A stretch of 64,000 bases of DNA from a virus. Its lineage: Duplodnaviria > Caudoviricetes. The translations under genes and the position numbers were made by a program. Positions 12,388 to 55,807 of this stretch are shown in pieces; positions within the stretch are counted from its first letter, which is position 1, and each line of letters opens with the position of its first letter. The stretch is taken from IMG/VR virus record IMGVR_UViG_3300023435_000009, one strand, 5' to 3'. The notes beneath the pieces are model-generated. The model was not told the DNA's origin, ran no database searches, and saw only the letters and a list, made by a program, of their open reading frames with translations.

Positions 12388-13889
12388 AGAAGGGGTACTT
12401 GACAGTATCCGACTTACTTGCTAGAGATTAATTATTCCTGCTTGAATCAGGAAGCAGAGGTTAGCAAATGAAGTGTCGCATCTTCCGACTTCACAAGGAT
12501 ACCAATCAGTCCAAGATCGATAAGTTGGAAGCCCTACACAAAGCATACGTCAAGTACGTCCGCATTTGCGTACAAACGATGCTTGACCAGCAGGTCTATA
12601 ATCTCCCGAAAGCCGCCAAACAAACGTTCTTCCCACGGGCCACCAACCTTACGTCCCAAATCGAAAAGATCGCACGAGACCACGCTATCCAAATTGTGAG
12701 CGCTTGGGCCAAAGCCACTTACGCCCGCAAGTTGAAACCGACTATCACCAACCTCAAGCACGAGGGTACCCTCACCGAACAGGACGCCAAAGCACTCTGT
12801 GTCATCGGATTAAAAGCCATCAGTAAGCCCTGGAAGTTTATCACCCAAGACCATCTCGACGCCTACCACACCCTGTTGGACACCTACGGAGGTAATAAGC
12901 CTATCGTAAGGGACAACCTGCCCATGCGGTTGTCGGAGATGACGGCTCGGTTGGAGGACGCATCTAAAGCCCCTCTCGGGGACTTCTGGTTGAGGGTGTC
13001 TTCGTTAGAAGCTCGTAAGTCCGTCTGGTTGCCTCTCGTTGGGAATCTTTACATTCAACAAGCTGATCAGGTCAGCAAAGGGATCTCAGCCCGCAAAACC
13101 AAGCGAGGCTTTTGGCGCTTTGAGGCGGTCAGTAAGGCTGAATGGGTTGTTCCCGAAGCACAGGAAGGTTGGCCTAAGTTGGGCGTTGACGTTGGTCTGA
13201 ACGTCCTTGCAGCTACATCAGATGGAGTGATTTACGGTGAACACGTCAAACCTAAGTTCGACAAACTCTACGCTCGTGTCAGAAATCTTCGAGCAAATCG
13301 CCAACGGCAGGATTTGAAGGATAACAGCCCAAAGTTGGATCACCTTGAGAGCAAATTGAGTGGGTTGATCAAGACAGAGACGGGTCGTGTGGTAAACACC
13401 CTTATCGTTCGTCATCCCGAGACGGTGTTCGTGGTCGAAGATCTCGATCTTCGAGGTTGTAGGGGTCAAAAAAGGTTTGCTTACAGGGCGTTACAGATCA
13501 ACTTGGAAAGGAAAGCTCCAACAAAGAAAGTGAACCCTGCTTACACGTCGCAGGAGTGTCCTTCTTGTGGTTATGTTCATCGAGGAAACCGAAGTTCAAT
13601 AAGGTTCCGTTGCCGCTCGTGCGGCAGGAAAGCTCATGCTGATTGGGTAGGAAGCGCTGGTGTGCTCAGACGTTCTGGAGACGAACACATCAAAGCTAAT
13701 GATCACCCACGAGGCGTAAAACGAGTGCTAAGAGAGCGATTCCGTATTAAGCGGACCAGTTCCTTGGGATTCGGACGGCAAGAGCAACCGTCATCCGAGC
13801 CCTTACCGTTGGGCCGGGAGCTTACTACCGAGGCACTTGGGTTACCAAGGATCGGCACAGCCTCAAACTTGATGCCTGTTACATTCTAG
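12388..13889 (+). mobile_element. TnpB-only element, family B full-length copy
   Basis: 5' region (AGAAGGGGTACTTGACAGTA...ACTTACT...TTCCTGCTTGAA.CAGGA) and tnpB 3' region are shared with the remnant at 63771-64000; ends approximate. Confidence 0.7.
12468..13889 (+). CDS. tnpB: RNA-guided endonuclease TnpB (family B)
   Basis: LGVDVGLN, VVEDL, CPSCG..CRSCG, HADWVG RuvC/Zn motifs. Confidence 0.9.
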   Translation: MKCRIFRLHKDTNQSKIDKLEALHKAYVKYVRICVQTMLDQQVYNLPKAAKQTFFPRATNLTSQIEKIARDHAIQIVSAWAKATYARKLKPTITNLKHEGTLTEQDAKALCVIGLKAISKPWKFITQDHLDAYHTLLDTYGGNKPIVRDNLPMRLSEMTARLEDASKAPLGDFWLRVSSLEARKSVWLPLVGNLYIQQADQVSKGISARKTKRGFWRFEAVSKAEWVVPEAQEGWPKLGVDVGLNVLAATSDGVIYGEHVKPKFDKLYARVRNLRANRQRQDLKDNSPKLDHLESKLSGLIKTETGRVVNTLIVRHPETVFVVEDLDLRGCRGQKRFAYRALQINLERKAPTKKVNPAYTSQECPSCGYVHRGNRSSIRFRCRSCGRKAHADWVGSAGVLRRSGDEHIKANDHPRGVKRVLRERFRIKRTSSLGFGRQEQPSSEPLPLGRELTTEALGLPRIGTASNLMPVTF

Positions 13890-14176
13890 CAGGTTTTAAG
13901 GAATGGTACCGTAGTGACCTCCCGAAGGGGGGGCCAGCGATGTCGGAGAGTACAAATACGACGAGATGGTGGGCGAAGAAATCAGTCGCTTCCGTAAGAA
14001 GCTGGACCCATTGTTGAAGTCCTACCGGAAGCACATCAAAGAGGTCCAGTTCGGGGGCGAAGAAAAGTCCTGGATTCACGCCTACATCGAACTCAAATAG
14101 CCTCTCCTCGGTAGAACGCCTATCTGACATCCCACAGCATTGACTCCCACAGCGAAAGTGGGCAAAGGAGAAAGAC

Positions 14177-14524
14177 ATGAAAAGGATTCTGATTGCACTG
14201 TTGACACTGATCTTGGCGGCAGCATTCGTCTTGTCCTGTAACACCACGGAAGAGAATGCCGAGGACGTGACTGTTGCCGAGGACACCCTGGCAGACCTCA
14301 TCGAGGGCGACGTGCCCCTGACGGACGGAACCGTCGAGACTGTCGCAGCCCTGGACACCGTCCCCACCGAAGACACCCTTCTGGAAGAGATGCCCACCCC
14401 GGTGGACGTGATCCAGGACGAGCACACCCCAATGGACGCCGTTGGGGATGCGCCTCCGATGTACGACAACCTGGAGGAAACGCACACCCCGGTGGACGTA
14501 CTCCCCGAGGTCGCATCCAACTAG
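14177..14524 (+). CDS. acidic lipoprotein
   Basis: signal peptide with lipobox VLSC; Asp/Glu/Pro-rich low-complexity mature part. Confidence 0.7.
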   Translation: MKRILIALLTLILAAAFVLSCNTTEENAEDVTVAEDTLADLIEGDVPLTDGTVETVAALDTVPTEDTLLEEMPTPVDVIQDEHTPMDAVGDAPPMYDNLEETHTPVDVLPEVASN

Positions 14525-15205
14525 CCCACCAGTTTGTCCAACTCACCCCTCAGATACTTCACGGCTGAGATACGTTTCCCCAGTCGATGATCTGTGACCT
14601 GATCCCTCTGGAGAGCGATAGTTCGTACCTTGTCGGACATCATGCCTCTCCCCACCTGAGCTTTCCGTTGCTGGTTACGTTGGTCCAACTGAGAGGATGC
14701 CTCTGCCTCCTGTAATCGGGCAGACAGGATTGCCTTCGCCGTTTGTAAATTCCGGTACTGTGATCGTTCGTTCTCTACTCGGACAACCAGACCCGTGGGT
14801 TTGTGTGTGAGGATTACTGCAGACGAGGTTTTATTCCGATGTTGGCCTCCAGGACCTGAGCCACGGGTCGCCTGCCACTCCAGGTCTCGCTCGTTCAGTT
14901 TGACGGTCTGCTCGTCCACGAGAGAGAGTATAGCGATAGTAACTGTTGACGTGTGTGTCCTGCCCCGTTTCTCCGTGGGGGGTACCCGCTGCCATCTCAT
15001 ACCACCGGCTTCATGCCGAAAAGCCCTTACAGCCCCCTTCCCGACCGCCTGGAAGGCAAGGAAACCGGGACGGTCCTCCAGCAACACCACGTCAAAGGGA
15101 CCTCCTCTGTGCCCATCGCACATAAACACCGTACTGTTCATGAACCAATAAGGAGGCATCCCGACCTCCCTCACCTGCTCTTATTTCTATTATGACAGTT
15201 TCCAT
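14521..15205 (-). CDS. class-1 peptide chain release factor-like protein (domains II-IV), expressed via +1 programmed frameshift; about 227 aa
   Basis: Frame 0 from ATG 15205 (GAAGGAG RBS): METVIIEIRAGEGGRDASLLVHEQYGVYVRWAQRRSL-stop. The +1 frame continues DVVLLEDRPG...RWQRVPPTEKRGRTHTS...GSGPGGQHRNKT. Confidence 0.9.
15091..15106 (-). promoter_or_regulatory. RF2-type +1 programmed ribosomal frameshift cassette
   Basis: AGGAGG-TCC-CTT-TGA-C: internal SD 3 nt upstream of CUU-UGA-C, the prfB architecture. Confidence 0.9.
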
Positions 15206-16320
15206 TAGTTTGACTCCTTCTCTAGCCCTAGTCGTCGGCAGGCCCACCCAGCCCATGCCGGGGTCATTTGAAAATGTTCCGCAATGCGTTTTTGTGTCCA
15301 GCCTTGCCCCCTCAGTTGACGGAGTTCCTTTTCGACTTGATCAATTTTTGCGGGAGCTTTACCCCTCACCTGAAGCTTGTATCGGAAGCAATCAGGACAA
15401 AAAGGTTCCGTTAGGGCCACCAGTTCCAGTCGGTGTTTTCGTTGGCTTAGGACCAGTCTAGGATTCCCTCTGTGGCTCTGCACACGAGGAGACCAACCAT
15501 AAAGTAGCCGCAGTCTAGAGGCTAGAAACTCGACATCCTCCCAGGTGAAACCGTCCGTGCAAAAGGCTACCCCATACCCTGTATTAATCAGCCCACCATC
15601 ACCCCAGTACCAATGCGCTAACGCTCGGGGGGTTAGCCGGATGTCCAGAGGAATAATTTTTTTACCCTTTGGGTACCAACGGAGGCGCTGGTCCGTAAAT
15701 GTTTTGTATTTCAGTGTCCTTAACTGTAAACTCGGGTTACCTCGGAGAACCTGTTTCCCAATGTGACCGATTCTTGCCGGACGTGGTTTTATGTTGCTTT
15801 TAACACCCCCGGCCCTAAGTTCCCTTTGAACCTGTTCAAGCCATTCCTTTCGGTCTGCTCTTTGTGCTAGTCCCAGACGACCCTCACTGCCACCTGTTTT
15901 TTCCAACCAGGCGTCACCAAGAAGTAAACCATCGATTAATTCAAGGGACTCCTCTGTGGTAGGGAAGGTCTTGTGACAAATCAGAGTATGTGCCTCCTGT
16001 ACCCCCCGTAGAGGAACACCAGCCCGCTCTAAACGGATACGCACCCAGTTGCGACTGAAACCCGTTGCCTTCGCTAACTCAGAGACAGAACGTCCTGACA
16101 GATACTCAGCGGGAAGGCTTTCCGTTGTTTTTGCATCTCGTTTGCCTTGAGCGATTGTTGCAGCCTCACTGTGGGTGCGGAAAGAAACATCTGCTTTAGC
16201 CAACCGTCGATGAATCACAGGTGCTGAAACACCTAGTGCCTTAGCAATGTGCAACTCCAGTTCCCCCGCTTGGTACCGACGAACAATGTCTGCGTCATCC
16301 AACGTGAGTCTTTTGGGCAT
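15205..16320 (-). CDS. LAGLIDADG homing endonuclease with N- and C-terminal HTH-like segments
   Basis: LIDGLLLGDAWL and ALAHWYWGDGGL motifs; GAGGAGG RBS before ATG 16320; TAATG overlap with the release-factor gene. Confidence 0.85.
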   Translation of the reverse strand: MPKRLTLDDADIVRRYQAGELELHIAKALGVSAPVIHRRLAKADVSFRTHSEAATIAQGKRDAKTTESLPAEYLSGRSVSELAKATGFSRNWVRIRLERAGVPLRGVQEAHTLICHKTFPTTEESLELIDGLLLGDAWLEKTGGSEGRLGLAQRADRKEWLEQVQRELRAGGVKSNIKPRPARIGHIGKQVLRGNPSLQLRTLKYKTFTDQRLRWYPKGKKIIPLDIRLTPRALAHWYWGDGGLINTGYGVAFCTDGFTWEDVEFLASRLRLLYGWSPRVQSHRGNPRLVLSQRKHRLELVALTEPFCPDCFRYKLQVRGKAPAKIDQVEKELRQLRGQGWTQKRIAEHFQMTPAWAGWACRRLGLEKESN

Positions 16321-16376
16321 AACGTCCTCCTCTGACAGCCCCACTCTACACGACGATCTCTGACCGGCAAGGACTT

Positions 16377-16685
16377 TCACACCCACTTGTTCCGGGGGAC
16401 AAAGATCAGGGTGACGCTGTCGTCCTCCCAATCCACACCCTGGCATCGTGCCCATGTCCTAAACTCTCGTGTTTCTCGTCGCCACCGATAGATCCGGTCA
16501 CGGCACCCGATGTCACAGATGCCCCGGCTCATACGAGGACGACCGAAAGTGCGCTTGCGGCAGTGGCAGGCTAACGATGGGGTCTTGGCGTACCGATGTG
16601 GCTCCACATCCTCGGGAGCGCTGTAGATTTCAAGACGTGAACGGATGACATTTGCTGTCCTCTGGCGGCGGGTTCCACGGTCCAT
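16377..16685 (-). CDS. hypothetical protein
   Basis: GGAGGA RBS, co-oriented. Confidence 0.5.
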   Translation of the reverse strand: MDRGTRRQRTANVIRSRLEIYSAPEDVEPHRYAKTPSLACHCRKRTFGRPRMSRGICDIGCRDRIYRWRRETREFRTWARCQGVDWEDDSVTLIFVPRNKWV

Positions 16686-17358: not shown

Positions 17359-17386
17359 CTACTCAGGGGTGGGCTTGGATGATCCC
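17359..17386 (-). promoter_or_regulatory. conserved bipartite motif (putative phage promoter)
   Basis: GGGATCATCC-N12-GAGTAG; its TAG is the stop of ORF 17359-18078. Confidence 0.8.
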
Positions 17387-18078
17387 CTGAGACTCCAGAC
17401 AAAACCCAGAGCGTCCAGTTCGGTGACCATTTCGGGAGTCACCTTGACCTGACCCCCACCATTACGGGATGAACGAATACTGTTTGTTCGAACACCGAGT
17501 TGGTAGCCATCGGGGCATTTGTAGGATTGCGCCGGAGAATAGTCCCCGAATTTGGCATGGTACTCCTTCAGCCTCTTCAGGAATTGGGGAAACCACTCGT
17601 TCCCATTCCAGACGAACCCAAGAAGGTCCAGCGCCGCTATCATCTCTGAGGTAGGGCTTACACGTTTCTTGTCCTTTTTTCTTGTCCGGACATCAGATAC
17701 CCTCATCCCAAGGGCGTAACCATCGGGACATTTGTAGGACTTTGGGACACGGCAGTGCCCGTGGGTCTTTTTGTACTCCTTCATGTGGGACAGGAATTCA
17801 GGGAACCATTCGCACACAACCCAAACGAACTTCAGGGCATCAAGTTCAGCGATCATTTCGGGAAGGTGTCTGGACTTGTTATGCCGGACACTACTTACAC
17901 GGGCACCCAACCTGTACCCGTCGTCACACAGGTAGGACTGCGGCACTCGGCAATGTCCATGACATTTCTGATAGGCTTTGATTTCCCCCAGGAACACATC
18001 GAACCACGCTGGCCAAGGTTTTATCCGCCCAAGCTCAGTGAGGCGTTTACGGAATTTGTTGCTGTTACTCCTGCCCAC
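17359..18078 (-). CDS. HA-repeat protein (3 repeats)
   Basis: W-F..FL..LK.Y...HGHC.VP.SY.C.DGY.LG...LD.LGFVW repeats. Confidence 0.85.
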   Translation of the reverse strand: MGRSNSNKFRKRLTELGRIKPWPAWFDVFLGEIKAYQKCHGHCRVPQSYLCDDGYRLGARVSSVRHNKSRHLPEMIAELDALKFVWVVCEWFPEFLSHMKEYKKTHGHCRVPKSYKCPDGYALGMRVSDVRTRKKDKKRVSPTSEMIAALDLLGFVWNGNEWFPQFLKRLKEYHAKFGDYSPAQSYKCPDGYQLGVRTNSIRSSRNGGGQVKVTPEMVTELDALGFVWSLRGSSKPTPE

Positions 18079-18088
18079 GGACGACCTC

Positions 18089-18742
18089 CTACCAGCCGTA
18101 GGAAAGGCGGAGGAGTTGCATCGGAATGACTCGGCTGCGGTACGTAGTGAACGCTTGCTTCGGCACCTGGACGCCGCAGTGTTTGTGGACGATGGCCTCG
18201 AACTGCCGCTTCGCCTTTTCCAAGGGAGCGCTGGCGTTGCCCCGGAGGGCTAGGTTGATGACCAGGAGGAATTGTCCCAGGCGCTGCTGTTGGGACTGGG
18301 CAAAGGCGAACATCGGAAGGAGGATGCTCTCCAGGTGGAGGTTGCTGGGACTGCGAAACCCGTCGAACACGAGGACGCCGATGTTGCGGAGGGTCGGGTC
18401 GTCCAGGTCCAGGAGGAGCCGGGACATGTCGCCGCAACGCCACTCGGTGCGGTCGTCGTTGTAGTGGGTGGCGTTGCGGTCAAGGATCCCCTGGTTGGTG
18501 TTGACGCCGATGTATCGGCCATGGTCGGGGGCAAGGACGCCTTCGTCCAGGAGGAGGCCACAGGTAGCGTCAGGGGCATCACCGCACAACTCCATCCAGT
18601 CCCTGGTCAGGTGCCCGTCGTAGAAGAGGTTCGTGGGGCACTCTGGGTCACGGAGGAGGTCGAGGGTCGTGGTCCTGGTCTTGTGCTTCTCCGGGTGTTG
18701 TTCAGGGGGGAAGGAATGGATGTCAGCCTGCGGGGTGGTCAT
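18089..18742 (-). CDS. hypothetical protein, possible degenerate methyltransferase fold
   Basis: GC-rich ORF inside the HA array; YIGVNT...WRCGDM pattern weakly MTase-like. Confidence 0.5.
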   Translation of the reverse strand: MTTPQADIHSFPPEQHPEKHKTRTTTLDLLRDPECPTNLFYDGHLTRDWMELCGDAPDATCGLLLDEGVLAPDHGRYIGVNTNQGILDRNATHYNDDRTEWRCGDMSRLLLDLDDPTLRNIGVLVFDGFRSPSNLHLESILLPMFAFAQSQQQRLGQFLLVINLALRGNASAPLEKAKRQFEAIVHKHCGVQVPKQAFTTYRSRVIPMQLLRLSYGW

Positions 18743-19624
18743 GGGGTGTTGTCCTTCTTCTGATTGCGGAGATCCCAAACGAAACCGAGGACATCAATCT
18801 GGTTGATCTGAGTGGGTGTCAGTTTACGGCCATCCGCCGGGGCAGACGTATTTTTGGGGGGGTGTCTGTCCCCCGTGTGCGTCCATGTACTCTCTGAGGT
18901 GACAAAGGAACTCCGGCCACCACTGCCCTTTCGTGGTGGCGTCCCAGACAAAGCCGAGAGCACCGAGTTGGCTCCGCATAGTGGGGGTCAAGACCCGGTG
19001 ATTTCGTACCCCCGCTGTGTGATGGCCTAGTTTGTAGCCATCATCGCATACATAGGTGCCACGCACCTGACAACGGCCATGCACGGCCTTGTACGCCTTC
19101 AAATGTTCCAGGAACTCCGGGAACCACTCTGTCGGGACATCCCACAGGAAACCTAGTTGCTCAAGTTTCTCCGCCCTGCTCGGGGTGATTTGGACGCCCA
19201 CTTTGTGCCTTTTGCCTGTCCGAACAGCATTCACTTTTGGGCCAAGTCTATACCCGTCCTGACATCTGTACTGGGTGGGCACCTGACAATGGCCGTACTC
19301 GGCTTTATAGTCCTTCAGACGCCGGAGGAACTCGTCGAACCAACAGGGGATCTCCCAAAGGAAACCGAGTTGATCCAGTACAGGCACCATTGAGGGAGTC
19401 ACTGTCCGAACACTTTTCCCTTGTCGAAACCTGCGAATGTCCCCGACCCTGTTCCCCAATGTGTACCCGTCAGTACACTTGTAAAGCTGCGGCACCTTAC
19501 AGTCCCCGTGTTCTTCCTTGTACGCCTTCAGATGTGCCAGGAACACATCGAACCACGCTGGCCAAGGTTTCATCAGCCCAAGCTTGGCGAGACGTTCACG
19601 GAATTTGTTGTTCCTTTTGCCCAC
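18739..19624 (-). pseudogene. HA-repeat protein (3 full repeats) with a frameshifted, internally deleted fourth repeat
   Basis: Frame ends YVCPGGWP* at 18824; another frame continues DGRKLTPTQINQIDVLGFVWD to a stop at 18739 with ATGA overlap of the next gene. Confidence 0.75.
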
Positions 19625-54619: not shown

Positions 54620-55807
54620 TTACGCCCCTGCCTTGAAGTTGTAGACCGGCTTCAACCGGGCCTTGATTTCGACCGTGTCCCCGATGCAGTCCTCAACGGT
54701 CTGCGAGTCCTTATATGCCATCGGAGCTTCATCCAAGGTTTTCCGGGTCACACAGGAGGTCCAAACGTCCTTCATCGTGTCCCTGAATTCCTCCAGGGAC
54801 AACTCCCGCTTGGCCCTTCCCCGAGCCATCTTCCGTCCGGCCCCGTGGGGTGCCGAGTTGTTCCAGTCCTCGTTACCTTTGCCTTCGCCCAAAATACACC
54901 CATCCCGCATATTCCAGGGTATGATGAGTTCTTCCCCTGCCTTGGCCGAGATGGCACCCTTGCGGATGATGTCGTCGTTCCCGATGAAGTTGTGTACCGA
55001 TGTGACCATTTCCAGGTCTGCCAGTTTCAACCCGAAAAAGCGTACCAGTTCTGTAGCCATCACCAAACGGTTCAGGGCTGCCAACTGTTGGGCCAGACGC
55101 ATTTCACGAAGATAGGACCGAGCGTCATCTCCAGTCAGCCAAGCGAGACCACCCCAGGAACCCAACTTGGTCTTGGCAACATTTTGATGCTTCTCAGCTA
55201 CCCGTAGACCGAAATTCCGGGAACCGGAATGGATAATCAGCCAAACATCTGCACCGTCCTTTTCCTGATCCAGTTCTAAGAAGTGGTTCCCTGACCCCAA
55301 AGAACCAAGAGAATGCCACACCTTACTCCCATCTCCTCGGGCACTCCAGTCCACATCATTCACGGTGTCCTGAAAATCAGACCAGGAAGGGCCTCTCCCC
55401 AAGTAGTGTTTGAACAAGTATGGGAGGTCTTTGGACACCTCTGTTCGGTTCCGAAACCCCGAAGGGACATGGGTTCGCAAATGCTTATCGAAAGCTTCGA
55501 AATCAGTCTGATCTTTGGTTGTGCCCGTTAACCGAACAGCGTTTACGCCGCACCCAATATCGACCCCAACAAGAGAGGGCACAACAGCCAAGTCCTCCTC
55601 ATCCAGGGGGCAGGTGAATCCGATCACACAACCAAAGCCTGCGTGATGATCGGGCATGATCCTCACTTTGGCCCCCGCAAAAGCGGGGAGATCCAAGAGT
55701 GCGTAGATCTGCTGAGCCTCCAATTGATCTGGGTAGTCCCCGTAAACAACAGCCGTTGTCCGGCCTCCCTGAATGGTGTGTCCTATACTCATTAAACCCT
55801 CCGTCAC
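54620..55807 (-). CDS. rtcB: RNA ligase RtcB
   Basis: IMPDHHAG, GVDIGCG, SLGSGNHFLE, IHSGSRNFG, HNF, PHGAGR, LDEAPMAYK. Confidence 0.95.
   Translation of the reverse strand: MTEGLMSIGHTIQGGRTTAVVYGDYPDQLEAQQIYALLDLPAFAGAKVRIMPDHHAGFGCVIGFTCPLDEEDLAVVPSLVGVDIGCGVNAVRLTGTTKDQTDFEAFDKHLRTHVPSGFRNRTEVSKDLPYLFKHYLGRGPSWSDFQDTVNDVDWSARGDGSKVWHSLGSLGSGNHFLELDQEKDGADVWLIIHSGSRNFGLRVAEKHQNVAKTKLGSWGGLAWLTGDDARSYLREMRLAQQLAALNRLVMATELVRFFGLKLADLEMVTSVHNFIGNDDIIRKGAISAKAGEELIIPWNMRDGCILGEGKGNEDWNNSAPHGAGRKMARGRAKRELSLEEFRDTMKDVWTSCVTRKTLDEAPMAYKDSQTVEDCIGDTVEIKARLKPVYNFKAGA

Follow-up and report, generated by a model that had tools for sequence, protein, structure and literature searches.

A conserved +1 frameshift site in the gene of a short phage release factor of RF1 type

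How is a release factor made when its reading frame is closed by a stop codon after 37 codons? The question is raised by a gene on the minus strand of a 64,000-nt stretch of the viral record IMGVR_UViG_3300023435_000009, from a large phage of salt lakes (the whole stretch is called the window below), which encodes a short class I release factor (RF), here named the mini-RF, in two successive frames. The point at which the frames meet is a real recoding site, conserved and programmed, and the shortened factor that this phage gene encodes is of RF1 type. Taken as a whole, the comparisons described here make it probable that the gene yields a class I factor of 227 residues, RF1-type and lacking domain 1, through a programmed +1 frameshift.

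A release factor gene in two frames

The gene begins at ATG 15205, which overlaps the TAA of the upstream LAGLIDADG endonuclease gene (TAATG) and is preceded by a Shine-Dalgarno (SD)-like element (Table 1). Frame 0 encodes a peptide of 37 residues, METVIIEIRAGEGGRDASLLVHEQYGVYVRWAQRRSL, which starts with METVIIEIRAGEGG, ends in RWAQRRSL, and closes with AGG-AGG-TCC-CTT-TGA-C. From GAC at 15093 the +1 frame is open for 190 codons, up to a TAG at 14523-14521. When CTTT is taken as one step the two segments join into a protein of 227 residues with the junction RRSL-DVVLL, and the predicted junction-spanning peptide within the joined protein is ..SLDVVLLEDRPGF.. / SLDVVLLEDRPGFLAFQAVGK. In a plain list of open reading frames (ORFs) the gene falls into two, one ORF of 217 residues that starts from a +1-frame GTG and another of 54 residues, and a frameshifted gene of this kind is easily overlooked. 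A first-pass annotation of the window had argued that the listed ORF starts in the wrong frame, that the real N-terminus is the 37-codon ORF from ATG 15205 with its ribosome-binding site, and that a cassette of the kind known from prfB (the RF2 gene) joins the frames at RRSLDVVLL. The anatomy of the gene agrees with all of this.

The sequence GGAGG-N3-CTTTGA has a single occurrence in the window when both strands are scanned, and CTT accounts for 16% of the leucine codons there. SD-like motifs precede 24 of 66 starts in the window compared with 11 of 66 at a control position, and given this enrichment the host ribosome probably uses SD pairing. Two other ways of passing the site were rejected. 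Reading UGA as sense in frame 0 leads into unrelated sequence with another stop soon after, and transcriptional slippage was dropped because the T run is only three bases long.

Table 1. Positions of the mini-RF gene, its recoding elements and other features
Feature	Position	Strand	Remarks
SD-like GAAGGAG	15214..15220	-	8 nt from ATG 15205; inside the last codons of the upstream LAGLIDADG gene
Frame-0 segment, codons 1-37	15095..15205	-	First strand and helix of RF domain 2; contains G13, G14 and D16
Internal SD-like AGGAGG (codons R34, R35)	15101..15106	-	TCC spacer, 3 nt before slippery CTT
Shift site CTT-TGA-C	15091..15097	-	CTT 15097-15095, TGA 15094-15092, C 15091
+1-frame segment, residues 38-227 and TAG stop	14521..15093	-	Rest of domain 2, domain 3, domain 4
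P75-P76-T77, RF1-type PxT	14974..14982	-	Flanked by Q72 and H84-T85
GGQ, residues 119-121, peptidyl-tRNA hydrolysis loop	14842..14850	-	Shared by every family member examined
Free-standing LAGLIDADG endonuclease gene with helix-turn-helix domains	15205-16455	-	Directly upstream of the mini-RF gene
TnpB / Cas12f-like (OrfB_IS605) gene	12468-13889	+	About 630 bp past the mini-RF stop
115-residue ORF convergent with the mini-RF gene	14177-14524	+	Signal peptide, lipobox-like VLSC, very acidic T/E/D/P-rich tail
RtcB RNA ligase gene	54620-55807	-	PHROG 1075, E 1e-115; 40 kb from the mini-RF gene
Amber-anticodon CUA tRNAs	L197:5460-5537; L198:918-993 (-); L166:1501-1575		

Conservation of the recoding site

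Homologues (their loci are labelled L below) were gathered by a scan of IMG/VR, which gave 80 loci, and by a scan of species genomes, which added more; each was walked from its N-terminus. Thirty-five relatives, at 40-59% identity, break after a CTT codon and resume in the +1 frame. The slippery leucine codon is CTT in every one of them, and the stop that forms the gate is TGA in 28 and TAG in seven, with no instance of TAA. The gate lies at codon 37 in 31 relatives and at codons 47-49 in three. A cytosine directly follows the stop in 25/35, and the hexamer three bases upstream is CGGAGG in 19 and SD-like in about 26. Because all 35 frameshifted relatives keep CTT followed by a stop, we regard it as close to certain on sequence grounds that the shift is programmed. 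The first-pass annotation had proposed that homologues be checked for SD-N3-CTT-TGA-C and for the frame jump, and this outcome supports it. Its RF2-type reading of the cassette is qualified by the gates: 28 are UGA, and the other seven relatives combine CTT-TAG with the PPT reading head described below.

Seven further relatives are read in one frame throughout and carry an in-frame TGA at codon 36-50, and five are uninterrupted. Among 30 relatives, the frame-0 segment is more conserved than the remainder of the protein (mean pairwise identity 57% vs 49%), and E7, G13, G14, L20 and L37 are invariant within it. The PPT head (sometimes PPN) and GPGGQ are constant across gate types, and the residue following the leucine tracks the gate, with D or E after TGA and S after TAG. 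The copies in Archangium gephyra (L081) and Pyxidicoccus fallax read CGGAGG-GGN-CTT-TAG-C, and L003 is another relative with CTT-TAG-C.

In a maximum-likelihood tree the codon-37 gate is found across nearly the whole family, in which branch lengths exceed one change per site. The gate switched between TGA and TAG at least three times, and its loss is nested in gated clades: L004 stands among gated genes, and the gate is also lost in L036 and L086. One clade combines a codon-47 frameshift with in-frame TGA. Among the family loci, the choice of TGA or TAG did not track the stop-codon usage or the GC content of the flanks.

Two explanations do without a programmed frameshift altogether. A one-nucleotide insertion in a formerly continuous gene, through decay or faulty assembly, would look the same in a lone sequence. 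However, the stretch is found in at least 24 salt-lake metagenome runs (2017-2019) and one marine run, and across 15091-15097 no difference is seen in Logan contigs of X15 and X16, two runs of other samples without a mark as possible source. The first-pass annotation had named a different base count at these positions as grounds for abandoning the frameshift; the independent assemblies agree on the count. A marine-metagenome variant (X19), about 3% diverged, has 30 substitutions and no insertions or deletions; it carries eight amino-acid changes in the gene, seven of them within residues 92-106, and retains the cassette and the open +1 frame. Together with the identical device in the 35 relatives, this makes an error or pseudogene extremely improbable. 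Hardly more credible is a product that starts inside the gene in the +1 frame, at GTG 15174 or at one of the GTG, GTG and TTG codons just past the TGA with AGGAGG as ribosome-binding site, the 37-codon ORF being separate. AGGAGG does lie 10 nt ahead of a +1-frame GTG, and the listed 217-residue ORF starts from GTG 15174. However, relatives conserve CTT-stop but not the start codons past it, and the +1 frame upstream of the site yields no RF-like sequence. Conservation in the protein is highest in the frame-0 peptide, from which domain 2 takes its first strand and helix and the GG-x-D element.

In X19, 25 of the 30 substitutions fall within 80 nt (14869-14947), in the linker of domains 2 and 3, and the changes at residues 92-106 move toward the family consensus AVLP. 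This cluster looks like a recombination patch more than like even divergence.

An RF1-type factor without domain 1

The joined protein is matched by both Pfam families of class I release factors, PF00472 (RF-1, with the GGQ motif; 101.8 bits against a gathering score of 35) and PF03462 (PCRF; 64.8 bits against 24), the latter only over profile positions 101-194. Among NCBIfam models it scores 212.8 bits with RF1, 141 with RF2 and 86.7 with PrfH, and the RF1 alignment runs unbroken over model positions 105-335 of 347. The cut-off of 400 for the RF1 equivalog NF001859 is not reached, as expected of a protein that lacks a third of the model. Sequence matches in the PDB follow the same order, with RF1 of Thermotoga maritima (E 3e-49) and of Thermus thermophilus (1e-44) ahead of RF2 (about 1e-25) and PrfH (about 1e-14).

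Aligned with T. thermophilus RF1, G116 corresponds to G13, E119 to D16, Q181 to Q72, P184-V185-T186 to P75-P76-T77, and H193-T194 to H84-T85. In the published RF1-70S structures these RF1 positions are the stop-codon readers, and RF1 reads U1 through the element that matches G13, G14 and D16 of the mini-RF. The RF1-type PPT head named in the first-pass annotation is supported. An AlphaFold model made from 63 natural family sequences and fragments has a mean pLDDT of 93.7. In this model a strand (residues 2-10) and a helix (15-34), both encoded in frame 0, pack into domain 2, and the junction residue 37 lies in the loop between that helix and the strand 38-45. The model superposes on ribosome-bound RF1 with a template modelling (TM) score of 0.92 (2.0 Å), compared with about 0.87 for RF2 and 0.66 for PrfH.

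Domain 1 of class I release factors contacts RF3 and the L11 stalk. In the mini-RF it is absent, as had been claimed: the RF1 alignment begins at model position 105, and the frame upstream of the ATG comprises 45 codons of unrelated sequence. All relatives are likewise short, at 215-230 residues. Domain 1 is reported as non-essential for release activity in a passage of PMC1586002 that cites Mora 2003. From the retained motifs we judge it likely, with somewhat less assurance than for the overall reading, that the product is an RF1-type release factor that acts codon-dependently.

Proposed mechanism and its alternatives

The cis elements and their spacing match those of prfB, and the prfB mechanism is for this reason the most economical reading of the site, with slippage efficiency and RF2 dependence assigned by analogy. 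Ribosomes would start at ATG 15205, read 37 codons and then pause, CUU occupying the P site and UGA-C the A site; pairing of AGGAGG with the anti-SD of 16S rRNA would meanwhile destabilise the E site. RF2 would then either terminate, giving the 37-residue peptide, or be outrun by the leucine tRNA, which would re-pair from CUU to UUU so that the next codon is GAC (D38) and reading continues in the +1 frame. The yield would be set by the race between RF2 action at the weak UGA-C and slippage, and would rise when termination at UGA is slow. The full-length product most likely releases peptides at UAA and UAG. With domain 1 absent, it should act without RF3-assisted recycling, as a compact release factor that functions without RF3.

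By the established tripeptide rule, PxT is the RF1-type determinant. With a head of this type, the mini-RF should not read UGA, its own gate, and cross-regulation is the most that would be expected of this copy; relatives gated by UAG could encode a factor that regulates itself. A switch that senses RF2 is plausible for the UGA gate described here. The sequence gives no sign for or against a defence toxin or infection as its trigger, the examples offered in the first-pass annotation. We put the chances of true RF2 responsiveness, as opposed to a fixed attenuator, at about even.

Several observations weigh against this reading. A feedback loop on UGA cannot be closed by a product of RF1 type. 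Nor does the family keep to one stop for sensing, as seven relatives have a UAG gate with the same reading head. Because an RF1-type factor should read UAG itself, the principle of the family is a stop-codon gate and not RF2 sensing as such. The SD element also is not obligatory for the gate, since nine of the 35 relatives are without an SD-like element. Within the protein, D replaces the equivalent of E119 in 29 of 30 frameshifted relatives, and a factor that lacks domain 1 may turn over more slowly on the ribosome.

The most serious rival to a sensing gate is a fixed attenuator, in which the frameshift only holds an additional and potentially harmful release factor at a low, roughly steady output that does not depend on how much RF2 or RF1 is present. 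Over-expression of release factors harms cells (PMC12421855), and the repeated exchange of TGA and TAG under a constant PPT head and the loss of the gate in L004, L036 and L086 fit such a role. However, a weak promoter or a weak ribosome-binding site would attenuate more cheaply, and the family retains prfB-like stimulators: the SD at N3, CTT, and the C after the stop in most members. Because the full set of stimulators is kept and TAA is absent among the 35 gates, selection appears to act on the race between termination and slippage. We therefore consider a pure attenuator unlikely, though it is the likeliest of the alternatives. A factor like PrfH or ArfB that rescues stalled ribosomes or acts on damaged ones in a repair pathway, perhaps with the phage RtcB, is more doubtful still. 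Domain 1 is missing as in PrfH, and RtcB is encoded in the same window; among the relatives, its gene lies 1.8 kb upstream of the mini-RF gene in L085 and directly downstream of it in L087. However, none of 43 IMG/VR loci has RtcB within 3 kb, and a linkage to RtcB in the manner of PrfH was rejected for the family. The score with the PrfH model TIGR03072 is 86.7 bits against a cut-off of 166.65, the fold is far closer to RF1 than to PrfH, and there is no tail of the ArfB type. The RF1 reading head is fully retained across the family, and the ribosome-rescue role that the first-pass annotation had entertained is therefore not favoured.

A gate read by the termination machinery leads to a broader and much more tentative proposal. 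Huge phages might run a termination regime of their own, in which an RF3-independent RF1-type factor in the tRNA module is dosed by a stop-codon gate that reports the termination capacity of the host, RF2 via UGA gates and RF1 or the factor itself via UAG gates. The same gate would be a frameshift in some relatives and UGA readthrough in others. The factor may also be set against, or timed with, suppression of UAG by the phage, because three complete carrier genomes encode a CUA tRNA. We hold this proposal possible, although the odds are against it.

Stop codons in the window and in relatives

The window uses the standard code: ORFs of at least 120 residues cover 88% of it under code 11. For the relatives with in-frame TGA, two tests were applied, both of them weak. 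Coverage by ORFs goes up under code 4, but any GC-rich DNA behaves in this way, and TGAs placed between long open frames show no enrichment. These results give no evidence of general TGA reassignment in those relatives and are not proof against it. An opal-suppressor tRNA (anticodon UCA) was not found in the three complete carrier genomes. The 68 ORFs of at least 120 residues in the window end in TGA (32), TAG (23) or TAA (13), and the TAG share of 34% seems high for a genome of 56% GC.

Comparison with known systems

With its frameshift, prfB is the textbook example of a gene that gauges how active its own product is on the ribosome. The mini-RF site shares with the prfB site the SD-like hexamer, the 3-nt spacer, CUU in the P site, UGA followed by C, and aspartate (GAC) as the first +1 codon, and both genes encode a class I release factor. 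However, the mini-RF protein is RF1-type while the prfB product is RF2-type, and relatives of the mini-RF also gate with UAG. The positions differ as well: the prfB site is at codon 25/26, in domain 1, whereas the mini-RF site is at codon 37, in domain 2, near residue 140 of RF1. An independent origin of the mini-RF cassette is indicated because the prfB site lies in the domain that is absent here. The cassette would thus have been built anew elsewhere, in a factor of RF1 type that shed domain 1. Whether such a cassette senses termination capacity even if its product is unable to read the gate is a question for which the family provides a natural test. According to a survey of 12,753 genomes from 2025, programmed frameshifting is shown for prfB and not for prfA, and TAG was never detected as the gate (PMC12421855).

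The protein itself has its best sequence and fold match in RF1 (prfA), with equivalents of PxT, Q181, H193-T194, GGQ and the switch-loop region. It differs in starting near RF1 residue 105, in two short loop deletions in domain 2, in D for E119, and in its need for recoding. PrfH (RFH) is a known release factor without domain 1 that is paired with RtcB2. The mini-RF resembles it in size, in the missing domain 1 and in the retained GGQ, but falls below the cut-off of the PrfH model, has canonical RF1 decoding motifs and is not in an operon with RtcB in the window. True RtcB-PrfH operons were found only among the weak matches L090-L160. ArfB consists of a GGQ domain and a basic C-terminal tail, with no decoding domain. 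Only residues 98-133 of the mini-RF match ArfB (40 bits against a cut-off of 100), and the decoding superdomain that ArfB lacks is present.

Recoded phages (Lak, crAss-like, Jade) bring their own full-length RF1 or RF2, for which no frameshift or internal stop has been described (10.1101/2021.08.26.457843). The likeness lies in a phage that brings its own class I release factor along with tRNAs; the difference is that the mini-RF window has no sign of stop-codon reassignment. A 2016 review stated that early in-frame UGA readthrough in RF2 genes, and a UAG counterpart in RF1 genes, were unknown (PMC5009743). The phage family shows three things stated as unknown: a gate on an RF1-type gene, a UAG gate, and an early in-frame stop of the kind once predicted to be read through. 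The one case mentioned in that review is a release factor gene of a giant amoeba virus whose expression needs readthrough and, separately, frameshifting (PMC5009743). As portrayed there it is likewise a viral release factor gene dependent on recoding, but its factor is presumably of eukaryote type, in a virus of eukaryotes. Literature searches on CUU-UAG, on frameshifts in phage release factors and on phage release factors without domain 1 returned nothing relevant, and within the searchable literature the claim of the first-pass annotation that this combination had not been described before stands.

Genomic context and tRNA arrays

The window is phage-like, with genes for a helicase, DNA methyltransferases, transposases, a radical-SAM protein and RtcB. 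It has no tRNA genes within its 64 kb. In 27 of 51 family loci, however, tRNA genes lie within 3-4 kb of the mini-RF gene, often in arrays of 10-25 tRNAs, and in the nearest relative (L001/L002, 59% identity) the gene is situated between tRNA genes. The three complete carrier genomes measure 345-395 kb, with 44-50 tRNAs apiece, and the mini-RF would add a new component to this translation equipment of huge phages. Each of the three has a tRNA-Leu(GAG), which by analogy with E. coli is taken to be the reader of CUU, and one tRNA with the amber anticodon CUA. Clustering of neighbouring proteins at the 51 loci revealed no conserved protein partner, only scattered HNH endonucleases, NADAR, SLOG and PMM.

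L085 and L087 are labelled as metagenome-assembled genomes of cellular phyla. Both have tRNA arrays and RtcB, and they look like contigs of phages that were placed in bacterial bins. The A. gephyra and P. fallax copies have ordinary chromosomal surroundings. Some unusual tRNA calls were made by ARAGORN: a tRNA-like gene with a four-base anticodon (caaa) at L087:666-747, in the array beside a mini-RF gene with a codon-49 cassette, and two-base 'tc' anticodons in L012 and G002.

The mini-RF gene is flanked by mobile genes, with the LAGLIDADG endonuclease upstream and TnpB downstream. A similar TnpB is close to the mini-RF gene in L085, and HNH endonuclease genes are close to it in L010, L019 and L034. 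The LAGLIDADG gene here and these HNH genes together suggest that the neighbourhood of the mini-RF draws homing elements. The TAG stops of the mini-RF gene and of the convergent 115-residue ORF share the palindrome CTAG, and a rival minus-strand ORF of 213 residues (13879-14520) is less gene-like than the latter. Further upstream, two adjacent minus-strand genes (17359-19624) encode Helicase-associated (HA) repeats (PF03457), three stretches in each.
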